Of a stretch of 42,494 bases of DNA, positions 12,726-15,254 are shown piece after piece; positions within the stretch are counted from its first letter, which is position 1; every line of letters starts with the position of its first letter. Under the pieces are notes generated by a model that saw nothing but the letters and a program-made list of their open reading frames with translations, was not told where the DNA came from and did not search any database. The position numbers and the translations under genes are program-made. Origin of the DNA: a virus; the IMG/VR virus record IMGVR_UViG_3300045988_020762; one strand, 5' to 3'.

Positions 12726-13466
12726 ATGCCGAACAGGATCATCAAGGATAGCATCAGGACGAGCAAAAGCATCAACGCAATGTCGGATTTCCAATTCCGA
12801 TTGTGGACGTACCTGATCACCTATGTTGATGATTATGGGCGCGGCAGCGCAGACCCGGAATTGCTCAAAGGCTTTGTATTCCCCCGCAGAAAAGGTGTGA
12901 CTGAGGGAACGATCAGTAAGACGCTTGCAGAATTGGCGACCATAGGCTCTGTGATCCTCTATGAAGTTGACGGAGAACCGTACCTATGTTTTCCAAACTG
13001 GAGCGAGCACCAGACGGTGAGGAACAAAGTAAGCAAATTCCCGGCACCTGCTGACGGATCGATTACATCTGAAATCAATTGCAATCAATTGCAAGCAGGT
13101 GAAAGCAAATGCGCCCGTAATCCAATCCAGAATCCAGAATCCAGAATCCAGAATCCAGAAGAAGTAGGCGGCGAGCCGCAAACGGCATCCCCGCCGGTGG
13201 TTTCCATCCCCCTCAATGACGGCACTGAATATCCGGTGTCTCAGGAGCAATGCCAGGAATGGGCGGGCGTGTACCCTGCTGTCGACGTGATACAGCAGTT
13301 GCGGGAGATGCGGGAATGGTGCCTGAATAACCCGGCGAAGCGGAAAACGGCGCATGGTGTGCGCGGATTTATCACCCGCTGGCTGGCGAAAGAACAGGAT
13401 CGCGGTGGCCGTAAGGGCGCAAAAGGCCCCGGCAACAAATGCGAGGACGCTTGGGGGTATGTGTGA
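12726..13466 (+). CDS. Phage replisome organizer (DnaD-like N-terminal domain)
   Basis: MPNRIIKDSIRTSKSINAMSDFQFRLWTYLITYVDDYGRGSADPELLKG is typical of the replisome organizer N-terminal domain. Internal DNA iterons are present. Confidence 0.7.
   Translation: MPNRIIKDSIRTSKSINAMSDFQFRLWTYLITYVDDYGRGSADPELLKGFVFPRRKGVTEGTISKTLAELATIGSVILYEVDGEPYLCFPNWSEHQTVRNKVSKFPAPADGSITSEINCNQLQAGESKCARNPIQNPESRIQNPEEVGGEPQTASPPVVSIPLNDGTEYPVSQEQCQEWAGVYPAVDVIQQLREMREWCLNNPAKRKTAHGVRGFITRWLAKEQDRGGRKGAKGPGNKCEDAWGYV
13074..13158. repeat. Iteron cluster inside the organizer gene (candidate origin of replication)
   Basis: atcaattgca x2 (13074-13093). Then aatcca, atccag and four perfect aatccag heptamers (13119-13158). 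Confidence 0.55.
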
Positions 13467-13603
13467 TGATGCGGCTTGTGATTGATATTTACGATGGCGA
13501 GGACGCGCAGGGCACGAAGGAGGCGGCAGCCATGCTGCTGGAGCCTCTGGGCCGCGTCCGGGTGGTGCAAGTCATCATTGACGGAAAGGAAGAAAAACGA
13601 TGA
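13466..13603 (+). CDS. Hypothetical small protein, 45 aa (below ORF-track cutoff)
   Basis: The start overlaps the organizer stop (TGATG) and the stop overlaps the next start (ATGA). MMRLVIDIYDGEDAQGTKEAAAMLLEPLGRVRVVQVIIDGKEEKR. Confidence 0.45.
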   Translation: MMRLVIDIYDGEDAQGTKEAAAMLLEPLGRVRVVQVIIDGKEEKR

Positions 13604-14154
13604 AGATTGATAAACTGTTTAAAGGCTTGAAGCGCATTGCCAGCGGCGACTATGTGTTGGAAGGGGATTTGATCTCCGAGGAAACGATTGAAATTGATCT
13701 GGATGATCGCTTTGTGGTAAAAGGCAGAATTGAATCCAAGAAAAGTGTCATTATTCGCTGTGGCATCGAGGCTGGCTGTGGCATCGAGGCTGGCTGGGGC
13801 ATCAAGGCTGGCTGGGGCATCGAGGCTGGCTGGGGCATCAAGGCTGGCTGTGGTATCGAGGCTGGCTGGGGCATCAAGGCTGGCTATGGTATCAAGGCTG
13901 GCTGTGGCATCGAGGCTGGCTGTGGCATCGAGGCTGGCTGGGGCATCGAGGCTGGCTGGGGCATCGAGGCTGGCTGGGGCATCAAGGCTGGCGCTTTTAT
14001 CAGCGTCAAAAAACGGATTTTTGCAGGGATATCCATTTATCGCACCAGCAAAGATTGTGATAAAACGATCTGCTGCACAGAACTGCGGGATGGAGAGGTC
14101 TGCTATGGAGACCTGATCCTGACAGGAAGCGAGGAAAATCCTGATGAAGATTGA
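13600..14154 (+). CDS. Hexapeptide-repeat protein (13 x [C/W/Y]-G-I-[E/K]-A-G), probable beta-solenoid, 184 aa
   Basis: Translationally coupled on both sides. The central 78 aa are a perfect-period hexapeptide array flanked by 53-aa N- and C-terminal regions. Confidence 0.8.
   Translation: MKIDKLFKGLKRIASGDYVLEGDLISEETIEIDLDDRFVVKGRIESKKSVIIRCGIEAGCGIEAGWGIKAGWGIEAGWGIKAGCGIEAGWGIKAGYGIKAGCGIEAGCGIEAGWGIEAGWGIEAGWGIKAGAFISVKKRIFAGISIYRTSKDCDKTICCTELRDGEVCYGDLILTGSEENPDED
13759..13992. repeat. Tandem repeat, 18 bp x 13, near-identical units
   Basis: Units tgYggYatcRaggctggc counted directly. Five unit variants differ only in the first codon (tgt/tgg/tat), the synonymous third base of the second codon (ggc/ggt) and the first base of the fourth codon (gag/aag). 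Confidence 0.95.
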
Positions 14155-14551
14155 ATTTACGGTCCCCGGTATTCCGGTGGGCAAGGGCCGTCCACGGTTT
14201 ATGAAAAACGGCCACACTTACACCCCGCAGAAAACGCGGGACTACGAGGACAAGGTGGTCCAGTGCTGGAAGCGCCAGAGCGGCAAGGGCTTTGCGGCGG
14301 GTGTGCCGCTCAGGGCCACCGTCACGGCGTTCTTTACGGTACCCAAGAGCACATCGAAGAAGAAGGCCGCTGCGCTGGACGGTACACCACACACCAAGCG
14401 CCCTGACGCTGACAACGTAGCGAAGGCCATCCTGGATGCGCTGAACGGCCACGCCTACAACGATGACAGCGCAATCGAAGCTTTGACGGTGCGAAAGTAC
14501 CAGACAACCGGAGCCTCCCGCGTGGAGGTCGCCATTGAGGAGGCAGAATGA
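14144..14551 (+). CDS. rusA: RusA-family Holliday junction resolvase
   Basis: MKIEFTVPGIPVGKGRPRF...KRPDADNVAKAILDALNGHAYNDDSAI is a canonical RusA pattern. Confidence 0.9.
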   Translation: MKIEFTVPGIPVGKGRPRFMKNGHTYTPQKTRDYEDKVVQCWKRQSGKGFAAGVPLRATVTAFFTVPKSTSKKKAAALDGTPHTKRPDADNVAKAILDALNGHAYNDDSAIEALTVRKYQTTGASRVEVAIEEAE

Positions 14552-14895
14552 TGGATGCTATGGAGTTTTTGAAAACATTGCGCAGAATGTGCAACTGTGA
14601 GTGCTGCAACTGCGAGTTCAAGAAAAGGCTTGGCGTGTTTGAAACCTGCACAGCCTGGAGAAAAACCCACCCGGACGAGGCCGTTGCTATCGTCGAAAAG
14701 TGGGCAAAGGAGCACCCCATCAAAACCCGCCAGAGCGTTTTTCTGGAACAGTTTCCAAATGCGCCAATATATACGAACACACATAACGTTGCTTTAGACC
14801 CATGCCTTGTTGATACAACGTTACGCGGACATTGCCCGACTGGAAGAGGTTGTGATATTTGCCGCCGCGAGTTCTGGATGCAGGAGGTGGAATGA
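14548..14895 (+). CDS. Cys-rich hypothetical protein, paralog A
   Basis: MMDAMEFLKTLRRMC...HPIKTRQSVFLEQFP...CDICRREFWMQEVE. ATGA coupling. Confidence 0.7.
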   Translation: MMDAMEFLKTLRRMCNCECCNCEFKKRLGVFETCTAWRKTHPDEAVAIVEKWAKEHPIKTRQSVFLEQFPNAPIYTNTHNVALDPCLVDTTLRGHCPTGRGCDICRREFWMQEVE

Positions 14896-15254
14896 TGGAT
14901 GCGTTGGAATTTTTAAAAGCAAGAAAACGGATGTGCGAAGCAACGAAATGCGCCAGTTGCAAACTGTGTCATATGCAAAGAGGTTGTTTTATCGCTCCGG
15001 AGAACGAAGAGATTGACGCCTGCGAAGAAGCTATTGCCATTGTAGAGCAGTGGGCCACCGCGCACCCCGTTAAAACCCGCCAGAGCGTATTCCTTGAGCA
15101 ATGGCCAGAGGCGTTTTACAGCGACGGGCTTTTGCAGATCTGTCCTGCCTGCGTGACACGCAGCTTTAGGGGACGCGTCGGCGAATGTGTTGTGGAGCCT
15201 AAGAATTGCCAGAAGTGCAAAAAAGATTTCTGGCTTGCGGAGGTGGAGGAATGA
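14892..15254 (+). CDS. Cys-rich hypothetical protein, paralog B (tandem duplicate of 14548..14895)
   Basis: MMDALEFLKARKRMC...HPVKTRQSVFLEQWP...CQKCKKDFWLAEVEE is colinear with paralog A. Confidence 0.7.
   Translation: MMDALEFLKARKRMCEATKCASCKLCHMQRGCFIAPENEEIDACEEAIAIVEQWATAHPVKTRQSVFLEQWPEAFYSDGLLQICPACVTRSFRGRVGECVVEPKNCQKCKKDFWLAEVEE

Follow-up and report, generated by a model that had tools for sequence, protein, structure and literature searches.

A Clostridia phage gene with a concertedly evolving hexapeptide array is predicted to encode a beta-solenoid

A phage of gut Clostridia, temperate in type and roughly 42 kb long, has a small early gene with 13 in-frame 18-bp repeats encoding the hexapeptide xGI(E/K)AG. 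By sequence similarity, the 184-aa product of this gene belongs to an unnamed family found in phages and prophages of these bacteria. The protein is predicted to fold as a beta-solenoid with about three hexapeptides per turn, and the array evolves in concert. Taken together, we consider it fairly probable that the gene specifies an early phage beta-solenoid whose concerted array makes it a fast-retuned protein-binding scaffold. The stretch of DNA analysed here, referred to as the window, is the full 42,494 nucleotides of the IMG/VR virus record IMGVR_UViG_3300045988_020762.

The gene, its neighbours and its repeat array

The solenoid gene occupies positions 13600-14154 of the plus strand, an assignment that draws on the open reading frame (ORF) list, an AF2 model, 1228 homologues and the dN/dS of the caps. 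It looks like a translated early gene: read from the sequence, a Shine-Dalgarno-like GGAAAGGAAG lies at 13583-13592 (+) and ends 7 nt before the ATG. The product (19.5 kDa, pI 4.9, charge -7.5) looks cytoplasmic, with no signal peptide or hydrophobic segment found by eye. It comprises three parts, all encoded on the plus strand: an N-terminal conserved cap with degenerate solenoid rungs (13600-13758, aa 1-53; family conservation, AF2, dN/dS), the hexapeptide array (13759-13992, aa 54-131), and a C-terminal conserved domain (13993-14151, aa 132-184; alignment, AF2, dN/dS) that consists of the last rungs, AFISVK KRIFAG ISIY.., and a Cys-containing beta cap. Residues R139, I140, F141, A142, G143, C159, G165, G170 and L172 of this domain are invariant among the 100 close relatives in alignment A1. 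The cap comparisons reach dS 1.8 and yield dN/dS values of 0.05-0.33 in six comparisons and 0.63 in one (L031) for the N-terminal cap, and 0.09-0.27 for the C-terminal domain. These values indicate purifying selection on the caps and thus argue for a real coding gene.

The gene overlaps both of its neighbours. Upstream, the stop codon of a 45-aa ORF (13466-13603, +; gene calls in L001-L008, tblastn) overlaps the solenoid start (ATGA); this ORF is found upstream of the solenoid gene in close relatives only and has no match in Pfam, PHROG or PADLOC. Downstream, a RusA Holliday-junction resolvase gene (14144-14551, +; Pfam RusA E = 7e-31, phrog_140) shares 11 nt with the solenoid end. The operon order is SSB, replication initiator, 45-aa ORF, solenoid gene, RusA and DNA methylase. 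Inside the replication-initiator gene, 7-bp iteron-like repeats are present at 13124-13160, with the array 599 bp downstream of them; these are the repeats that the preliminary description took for the origin. Synteny was tried as a clue to function and failed: RusA is the downstream neighbour in only ~10 close relatives in our neighbour census, and across the family the neighbouring genes are moron-like and unconserved, and 76 of the clusters formed by roughly 150 neighbour ORFs are singletons. All contexts examined are early or accessory regions of phages or prophages.

Tandem Repeats Finder places the repeat at 13757-13992 of the window (period 18, 13.1 copies, score 374). Read in the frame of the ORF it consists of exactly 13 units at 13759-13992, a delimitation to which a unit census, AF2 and a 77-array comparison also contribute. 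The units fall into five DNA variants: TGTGGCATCGAGGCTGGC and TGGGGCATCAAGGCTGGC account for 4/13 units each, TGGGGCATCGAGGCTGGC for 3/13, and TGTGGTATCGAGGCTGGC and TATGGTATCAAGGCTGGC are single-copy variants (1/13 each). Among these 13 units only positions 2, 3, 6 and 10 vary. The preliminary description was exact on both counts, having reported 13 in-frame units with five variants at these coordinates and variation confined to codon 1 and to single bases of codons 2 (the third) and 4 (the first). It had also noted that the repeat is open in several frames, and indeed all three plus frames (3/3) and one minus frame are stop-free across the array, while a second minus frame has one stop only; these alternative ORFs are by-products of the repeat. 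A 15-nt backbone of the unit occurs 13 times in the window, each time within the array, against a chance expectation of 0.24.

Assembly collapse or expansion had been named as a possible source of the array, and the public assemblies speak against it. The array in the window is not an assembly artefact: an index of public assemblies lists the exact 184-aa product in 76 blocks, the identical array recurs in four independent contigs (L001-L004) whose flanks are 100% identical, and the longest exact repeat within the array measures 47 nt. The largest default SPAdes k-mer is 55 and thus exceeds this repeat.

The protein family and its predicted fold

Homologues of the window protein number 1228 at E <= 1e-3; they have the caps in common and contain 2 to about 21 units. 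A search for such arrays in other phages, as had been proposed, uncovered a large family, comprising 240 clusters at 50% identity by phmmer, and 417 IMG/VR loci encode a relative. The hosts are Ruminococcus, Lawsonibacter, Oscillospiraceae and Eubacteriales MAGs. Family proteins are 117-290 aa long with 2 to 35 units per array; some carry a fused HTH, RNA-polymerase alpha-CTD or Lar restriction-alleviation domain, and some have an alternative N-terminal domain (precomputed PF27195) for which no PDB relative was found. The window protein has no match among Pfam, PHROG, NCBIfam or PADLOC models. The family is absent from 50,697 deposited phage genomes and from the PDB, megablast and tblastn searches of INPHARED phages found no relative, and literature searches on the motif, on DUF342/FapA and on phage bactofilins turned up no account of it. 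The size of the family, its concerted arrays and the apparent diversification of two exposed positions per unit had been missed in the preliminary description.

AF2 run with a 100-sequence alignment returned a model with pLDDT 94.9 and pTM 0.87; from the single sequence pLDDT was 30.5, and only the alignment-based run is informative. In this model, strands of 3 residues recur about every 6 residues from residue 10 on, with a longer strand at every third position (residues 79, 97, 115 and 133), which implies an 18-residue coil. Each hexapeptide would supply one strand, I-E/K-A, with I pointing in, E/K out and A in, and a turn, G-x-G; the codon-1 and E/K residues would be solvent-exposed. The conserved N- and C-terminal caps, the latter modelled as a beta cap at residues 156-174, would close the rod, so that the 13 repeats would add ~4.3 coils. 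A Trp/Cys ladder with alternating charges had been proposed for the array. The ladder did not hold, as position 1 displays no lag-3 correlation, whereas the alternation of charge is weakly borne out by an anticorrelation of E/K at lag 3 (z = -4.4) and lag 1 (z = -3.8), z values that are inflated by the pooling of related arrays. Foldseek found no convincing analogue in the PDB (best E = 0.045) and only uncharacterised phage proteins in BFVD, and a sequence search of the PDB gave low-complexity matches only (5vj4, a LIM-domain protein).

Diverged relatives link the protein to known solenoids. Among 146 of them, 39 match the Pfam FapA beta-solenoid (PF03961, formerly DUF342) at E <= 0.01, with a best E of 3.5e-9, and P0147 (33.0 bits) and P0158 (31.7 bits) exceed the FapA gathering score of 31 bits; MinC_C (PF03775) is matched by 7/146 and Bactofilin (PF04519) by 3/146 (best E = 1.4e-5). 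These matches fall in the array-equivalent region. Since the window protein itself has no direct match to the FapA, MinC_C or Bactofilin models, its link to FapA is best described as transitive and at superfamily level. The likeness consists of an all-beta solenoid with short strands and Gly-rich turns, and the known domains serve as scaffolds for protein interaction or assembly. Unlike FapA, MinC_C and bactofilins, however, the window protein has its own conserved caps and near-identical instead of degenerate rungs, and unlike FapA it is phage-encoded and without the FapA N-terminal domain. The gene neighbourhood of FapA is flagellar/sigma-28 (PMC11607428), and no flagellar/sigma-28 or division gene neighbourhood was found among the phage and prophage contexts examined. 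The preliminary description had suggested a left-handed beta-helix or bactofilin-like solenoid: the beta-solenoid is supported by the AF2 model, and the bactofilin-like reading points in the right direction because of the Pfam matches of the relatives, while the canonical left-handed helix is not retained. Qnr and MfpA, pentapeptide-repeat DNA mimics, are likewise small, cytoplasmic and beta-helical, and they exert their effect on a target protein to which they bind. They have a period of 5 and a quadrilateral coil, in contrast to the period of six here, and DNA mimicry by the window protein is unlikely, given that it is only mildly acidic.

Concerted evolution and changes in array length

We compared 77 arrays containing 1090 units. 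Synonymous third-position diversity is 0.008-0.087 within arrays versus 0.29-0.60 between arrays. Codon 1 has a within-array diversity of 0.28-0.51, and the first base of codon 4 one of 0.41, which is 10-20 times the value for synonymous sites. Most codon-1 variants (77%) have a one-nucleotide neighbour in their own array; the commonest codons are TGG, GAG, TGT, GAT, TCG and TTG, and all four bases occur at variable positions. The array evolves in concert: gain, loss and reshuffling of units outpace the accumulation of point mutations, which leaves synonymous codons uniform within an array and different between lineages. Codon 1 and the first base of codon 4 nevertheless remain highly polymorphic in each array. 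This turnover could proceed via replication slippage or unequal recombination between units, and selection may keep the two polymorphic residues diverse; a mutational hotspot at codon 1 and codon 4, instead of selection, is possible. An origin through a diversity-generating retroelement was rejected, as all four bases vary and no RT domain was found among the Pfam-annotated genes around the locus.

Copy number, which had been suggested to be potentially variable, does differ between close relatives. Unit counts are 17 vs 24, 13 vs 23 and 15 vs 19 in pairs of phages that are 99.3-99.8% identical; one clean block indel accounts for the difference in each of the first two pairs. Close relatives of the window have 4, 16 and 20 units. 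All assemblies read from the window's own lineage, however, have the array unchanged. The length-variant arrays of the near-identical phages come from short-read assemblies and contain exact repeats of 61-71 nt, so that part of the variation in unit number could be explained by short-read collapse.

A similar combination of features is known from fungal NLR WD40 sensors, in which the recognition domain is made of homogenised repeats with few hypervariable sites and length polymorphism (PMC12222747). The window family has three features of high-internal-conservation (HIC) repeats, namely homogenised units, which in such repeats are at least 80-100% identical, hypervariable codons (here 1 and 4) and unit-number polymorphism, and it shares with the HET-D/HET-E WD40 repeats the gain, loss and shuffling of units. 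The two systems are non-homologous: HET-D/HET-E are fungal beta-propellers with a ~42-aa unit, whereas the phage protein is a viral, predicted solenoid with a 6-aa unit. A recognition function is proven for the fungal HIC proteins; for the phage solenoid it is suggested by analogy.

Candidate functions and implications

The most likely function is that of an evolvable cytoplasmic binding scaffold. The solenoid would be made early in infection and bind a protein, and quick retuning of its surface and length would let it keep up with a variable partner, for which a host factor or a defence protein is the most plausible candidate. We infer this from the MinC beta-helix module, the fungal HIC sensors, the moron-like neighbours and the domain fusions. 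The MinC beta-helix domain is a two-faced protein-interaction module, with MinC_C both dimerising and binding MinD (PMC6771821). More tentatively, the solenoid of these gut phages may be a reprogrammable recognition module, equivalent in viruses to the HIC-repeat sensor domains of fungal NLR immune receptors. Rod length would change and rungs would be reshuffled through slippage or unequal recombination, and two exposed residues in each rung would be diversified by selection. If this is true, a phage could quickly retarget a variable host protein, for example a component of a defence system.

The solenoid could instead be a bactofilin-like, self-assembling polymer, with the repeat number setting subunit length and end-to-end filaments that organise replication or perturb host division or polarity. 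The Bactofilin, MinC_C and FapA matches of the relatives and the position of the gene within the replication module are consistent with this idea, and bactofilins are reported to be small beta-helical filament formers (bioRxiv 10.1101/617639). Bactofilins polymerise through exposed solenoid ends, however, whereas conserved structured caps are predicted at both ends of the phage protein. Hypervariable lateral residues and a range of 2-35 units fit a regular lattice poorly, and the window protein lacks a direct Bactofilin match, so we regard a polymer as unlikely.

We are slightly more sceptical of a role as partner of a small HTH protein, either as co-regulator or sensor or as the toxin-like half of a toxin-antitoxin or abortive-infection pair; its function would then be regulatory or defensive for the lysogen and not directed at the host. 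In one lineage (L103/L104) the solenoid gene overlaps a 72-aa HigA-like HTH gene (dnstrm_HI1420 / HTH_37), and this pair adjoins a Gp49-HTH_37 toxin-antitoxin pair and an Mrr_cat nuclease. The related phage L106 encodes solenoid and HTH in one fused protein (P0051), and further fusions are found in P0133 (C-terminal HTH_3), P0145 (N-terminal HTH_3) and P0158 (RNA-polymerase alpha-CTD). No HTH gene adjoins the window gene, however, whose neighbours are the 45-aa ORF and RusA. HTH neighbours occur in a minority of loci, phage early regions often contain HTH genes in any case, and a PADLOC match is absent.

It is very improbable that the DNA array is itself the functional element, as origin iterons or as a homology hotspot for module exchange, and the protein incidental. 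In its favour, the array lies close to the iteron-like repeats in the initiator gene, and the unit backbone is identical across lineages with 6-20% flank divergence. The synonymous divergence of the N- and C-terminal parts is also discordant (dS 0.66 vs 0.059 in L014 and 0.097 vs 0.495 in L008), suggesting recombination inside the solenoid gene. An effect as recombination hotspot may nonetheless be a side effect, and it leaves the protein unexplained. The reading frame, caps and fold are conserved, and folding of the single strand is unremarkable (z = 0.05). The earlier suggestion of a protein-binding DNA array is not supported, on three grounds: the synonymous codons of the unit differ freely between lineages, the gene upstream of the identical backbone can be a DNA methyltransferase or either of two kinds of replication gene, and the motif is found nowhere else in the window.

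The last alternative, a canonical left-handed beta-helix (hexapeptide-repeat) protein resembling acyltransferases, is the least credible. With LpxA, LpxD and GlmU the window protein shares a six-residue period of Ile and small residues, a coil of about three repeats and an inward-facing aliphatic residue; NCBIfam LpxD matches it weakly (E = 3e-4, 20 bits, against a cut-off of 207), and GlmU, LpxA and LpxD top the Foldseek PDB list. The hexapeptide-transferase consensus (PS00101) is [LIV]-[GAED]-x2-[STAV]-x. With the Ile of the unit as position i, the repeat phase violates this consensus, because i+4, which should be S/T/A/V, is hypervariable (W/C/E/D/S/L); in addition, i+1 is K in 39% of units. 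Pfam Hexapep (PF00132) does not match the window protein at E <= 1, the Foldseek matches have E >= 0.045 with TM about 0.2 and rmsd about 12 A (GlmU: E = 0.045, TM 0.21, rmsd 11.8 A), a catalytic or substrate-binding appendage is missing, and the relatives match FapA, MinC_C and bactofilin instead.

The locus shows a mode of rapid phage-gene diversification distinct from diversity-generating retroelements and from tail-fibre module swapping, in which an in-frame micro-repeat array encodes a predicted solenoid that changes in length and surface within very short evolutionary times. In phage genome catalogues these arrays are probably misreported, since short-read assemblies break at them or may collapse them. 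The family is frequent among uncultivated phages of gut Clostridia and constitutes an unannotated block of gut virome dark matter, as it is absent from Pfam (by direct match), PHROGs, NCBIfam, PADLOC, the PDB and the deposited phage genomes. Should host defence or takeover targets be what the variable surface binds, these proteins would supply arms-race effectors of a new class and, for binder engineering, a compact natural scaffold, offering a minimal framework of 6 aa per rung for a binder library.

The repeat array and its gene

The single strong array that Tandem Repeats Finder reported in the window spans 13757-13992 (period 18, 13.1 copies, score 374) and lies within a plus-strand ORF of 184 aa at 13600-14154, hereafter the solenoid gene. 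Read in frame, the array holds exactly 13 units of the hexapeptide xGI(E/K)AG (13759-13992) in five DNA variants, whose differences are confined to positions 2 and 3 (codon 1: TGT, TGG or TAT), 6 (GGC/GGT) and 10 (GAG/AAG), exactly as the preliminary description had it. In the window, all 13 occurrences of the 15-nt backbone fall inside the array; 0.24 would be expected by chance. Four of the six frames are stop-free across the array, and the long ORFs in its other frames are by-products of the repeat. The same description had raised the concern of an assembly artefact, which the window array is not: an identical array with 100% identical flanks is present on four independent contigs (two with NODE_ and two with scaffold names), and public assemblies contain the exact 184-aa product in 76 indexed blocks, 47 of which come from 20-50 kb contigs. 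Since the longest exact repeat within the array (47 nt) is shorter than the largest default SPAdes k-mer size of 55, the order of the units should be resolvable with short reads.

ORF 13600-14154 is a genuine gene. The 3' end of a Shine-Dalgarno-like GGAAAGGAAG lies 7 nt upstream of its ATG, the start codon and the stop of a preceding 45-aa ORF overlap as ATGA, and its stop sits 11 nt within the RusA gene that directly follows (E = 7e-31). In the conserved caps flanking the array, dN/dS against close relatives is 0.05-0.33 (dS up to 1.8), with one exception, the N-terminal part of L031 (0.63). The neighbourhood runs HNH, SSB (Pfam E = 4e-33), replication initiator (phrog_2149, 12726-13466), 45-aa ORF, solenoid gene, RusA, two small Cys-rich ORFs and DNA methylase, an early replication/recombination operon of a phage of ~42 kb. 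The predicted product has a mass of 19.5 kDa, a pI of 4.9 and a net charge of -7.5, and no hydrophobic segment is visible in its sequence.

Several neighbours have features of their own. Translation of the 45-aa ORF (13466-13603; MMRLVIDIYDGEDAQGTKEAAAMLLEPLGRVRVVQVIIDGKEEKR) is coupled to that of the solenoid gene; the ORF retains 62-96% identity in close relatives and matches no family; in relatives L014 and L031, inserted DNA separates the two. The adjoining Cys-rich ORFs 3' of RusA (14548-14895 and 14859-15254; 115 and 131 aa) resemble tandem paralogues, both carrying an MMDA(M/L)EFLK start and a ..HP(I/V)KTRQSVFLEQ(F/W)P.. motif, and have no Pfam or PADLOC match. Within the initiator gene, AATCAATTGC is repeated 2.2 times (13073-13094) and AATCCAG 5.3 times (13124-13160, 100% match); these iteron-like repeats (13073-13160) are probably the phage origin, which resembles lambda-type origins in lying inside the initiator ORF.

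Predicted fold and protein family

AF2 supplied with a 100-sequence alignment predicts the fold of the window protein with high confidence (pLDDT 94.9, pTM 0.87), compared with a pLDDT of 30.5 from the single sequence. In the model, strands of three residues recur at six-residue spacing from residue 10 to 142, formed in the array by I-(E/K)-A with G-x-G as the turn, and a beta cap spans residues 156-174. One strand in three, at residues 79, 97, 115 and 133, is extended by a residue, indicating an 18-residue coil of three hexapeptides per turn. The solenoid anticipated from the repeat is thus upheld at the level of a model. Independent support for the solenoid comes from 105 arrays, in which the position-4 charge shows negative correlation at lag 3 (z = -4.4) and lag 1 (z = -3.8), as stacking of E and K along one face would produce; the mutual relatedness of the arrays inflates both z values.

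No model in Pfam, PHROG, NCBIfam or PADLOC matches the window protein, the PDB contains nothing related to it in sequence, and tblastn returned zero matches in 50,697 deposited phage genomes. The protein nonetheless belongs to a large unannotated gut-virome family, with 1228 homologues among metagenome proteins (E <= 1e-3) and relatives at 417 IMG/VR loci. A phmmer search with a two-repeat member as query gave 240 clusters at 50% identity, and at 90% nearly all homologues are singletons. Carrier genomes are gut-sample MAGs of Ruminococcus, Lawsonibacter, Oscillospiraceae, Ructibacterium and Eubacteriales. Those close homologues that were inspected have in common an N-terminal cap (~53 aa; MKIDKLFNGLKRIANGDYVLEGDLISEETIEIDLDDRFVVKGRI...), a run of 2 to 35 xGI(E/K)AG units and a C-terminal domain (~50 aa; ..KRIFAGISIY....C.K.I.C.EL..GE.CYGDL); in a few, the N-terminal cap is swapped for another domain or an additional domain is fused. 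Three proteins (P0066, P0116 and P0119) carry in place of the usual cap an ~85-aa domain (MKITKELLKEKGAC..GYRDFLKEYP..), which has the precomputed assignment PF27195 and for which no PDB relative was found.

Direct Pfam tests of the window protein all failed, and its placement comes through diverged relatives. Among 146 family representatives, the FapA beta-solenoid matches 39 (best E = 3.5e-9), MinC_C 7 and Bactofilin 3; P0147 (33.0 bits) and P0158 (31.7 bits) exceed the FapA gathering score of 31 bits. The FapA-matching members have degenerate rungs, and the match spans the region equivalent to the array. These matches place the window protein among solenoids of the FapA / MinC_C / bactofilin kind, as a branch whose repeats are homogenised, unlike the degenerate rungs of those relatives.

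Array evolution and unit number

A comparison of 77 distinct arrays (1090 units) shows that any one array keeps essentially to a single synonymous codon at each backbone position, and that the choice varies by lineage (for example GGA-ATT-GAA-GCA-GGA in L048 versus GGC-ATC-AAG-GCC-GGT in L087). Diversity at synonymous third positions is 0.008-0.087 within arrays and 0.29-0.60 between them, against 0.28-0.51 and 0.30-0.48 at codon 1 and 0.41 and 0.48 at the first base of codon 4. The pattern is one of concerted evolution with diversity maintained at two positions. Position 1 is occupied by W (364), E (156), C (147), S (106), D (83), L (74), Y (46), R (36) and T (35), and position 4 by E (574), K (426) and N (81). 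Codon 1 variants are mainly one-step neighbours (TGG, TGT, TAT, TCG, TTG, GAG, GAT), and for 77% of variants the same array holds another that is one nucleotide away.

Unit number varies as well, as had been foreseen. Near-identical phages differ by a clean block of 7 units (L060/L084, 24 versus 17; 99.4% identity over 4.4 kb), by a clean block of 10 (L042/L053, 13 versus 23; 99.8%) or in having 15 versus 19 units (L045/L051; 99.3%), differences to which assembly collapse may have contributed in part, since these arrays hold exact repeats of 61-71 nt. In close relatives of the window, 4, 16 and 20 units lie between flanks that are 83-94% identical. Several IMG/VR contigs have both ends within the solenoid array, as do IMGVR_UViG_3300031555_001083 (L020/L025) and IMGVR_UViG_3300045988_050603 (L034/L065). 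Elsewhere in the family, arrays break assemblies, with circular or permuted genomes cut at the repeats; catalogued gene copies are consequently often truncated, and counts for long arrays may be unreliable.

The two ends of the gene may have different histories. Relative to the window, dS is 0.66 in the N-terminal and 0.059 in the C-terminal part of L014, and 0.097 and 0.495 in those of L008. Together with L031, these strongly discordant values suggest recombination breakpoints in or beside the array, and that the shared array may sometimes act, as a side effect, as a crossover point between phages.

Putative role of the solenoid

The structural and evolutionary description of the array is well supported; for its function we put forward a hypothesis. 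Known domains with a related fold serve in protein interaction or assembly; MinC_C, for instance, dimerises and binds MinD (PMC6771821). In fungal NLRs, the WD40 recognition domains combine repeat homogenisation with hypervariable sites and polymorphic length (PMC12222747), an evolutionary signature that the phage arrays have in common with them. This mode of diversification is described for the fungal sensors, and our literature search found no description of it in phages. On these two grounds, the solenoid is most likely a cytoplasmic binding scaffold produced early in infection.

Synteny gives little guidance: RusA lies 3' of the solenoid gene only in ~10 close relatives, 76 neighbour clusters are singletons, and another context runs Sipho_Gp157 ... 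DUF1064. One rival, a bactofilin-like polymer, would draw on the assembly side of the same fold relationships. Another, an HTH partner or toxin-antitoxin-like module, would draw on an accessory island of one phage lineage (L103/L104, 7001-8081) in which the solenoid gene and a HigA-like HTH gene accompany a Gp49/HTH_37 toxin-antitoxin pair and an Mrr_cat nuclease. The solenoid gene (289 aa) and the HTH gene (72 aa) overlap there by 8 nt, and a sister phage (L106, 5004-5825) encodes both as a single fused protein of 273 aa. Additional fusions in the family involve HTH_3, an RNA-polymerase alpha-CTD and a Lar restriction-alleviation domain. In P0158 (L105, 3995-5317; 440 aa) a degenerate FapA-like solenoid is joined to the alpha C-terminal domain (Pfam E = 3e-26); its gene adjoins SmpB and TIR/LRR protein genes on a short, bacterial-looking contig.

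A DNA-level element, such as the protein-binding array previously suggested, fares worse, and the array DNA is probably not functional in itself: synonymous codons of the unit are unconstrained across lineages, an identical backbone lies behind three distinct upstream genes (phrog_2149 initiator, DUF6291 and N6_N4 methylase), no dispersed unit motif was found in the window outside the array, and single-strand folding of the array is no better than that of shuffles. The weakest rival is a left-handed beta-helix enzyme, whose fold was one of two first proposed: such enzymes are the best solved Foldseek matches, none convincing (E >= 0.045, TM ~0.2, rmsd ~12 A), and the matches in BFVD are uncharacterised phage proteins only. 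Hexapeptide-transferase repeats follow the consensus [LIV]-[GAED]-x2-[STAV]-x. The window protein is not a canonical transferase of this type, as it has no Hexapep match and its repeat phase breaks the consensus, a hypervariable residue occupying the small-residue position.

As a binding scaffold, the solenoid would have its surface and length retuned, tracking a variable partner. If breakpoints do fall at the array, it would also be a mosaic junction of phage modules.
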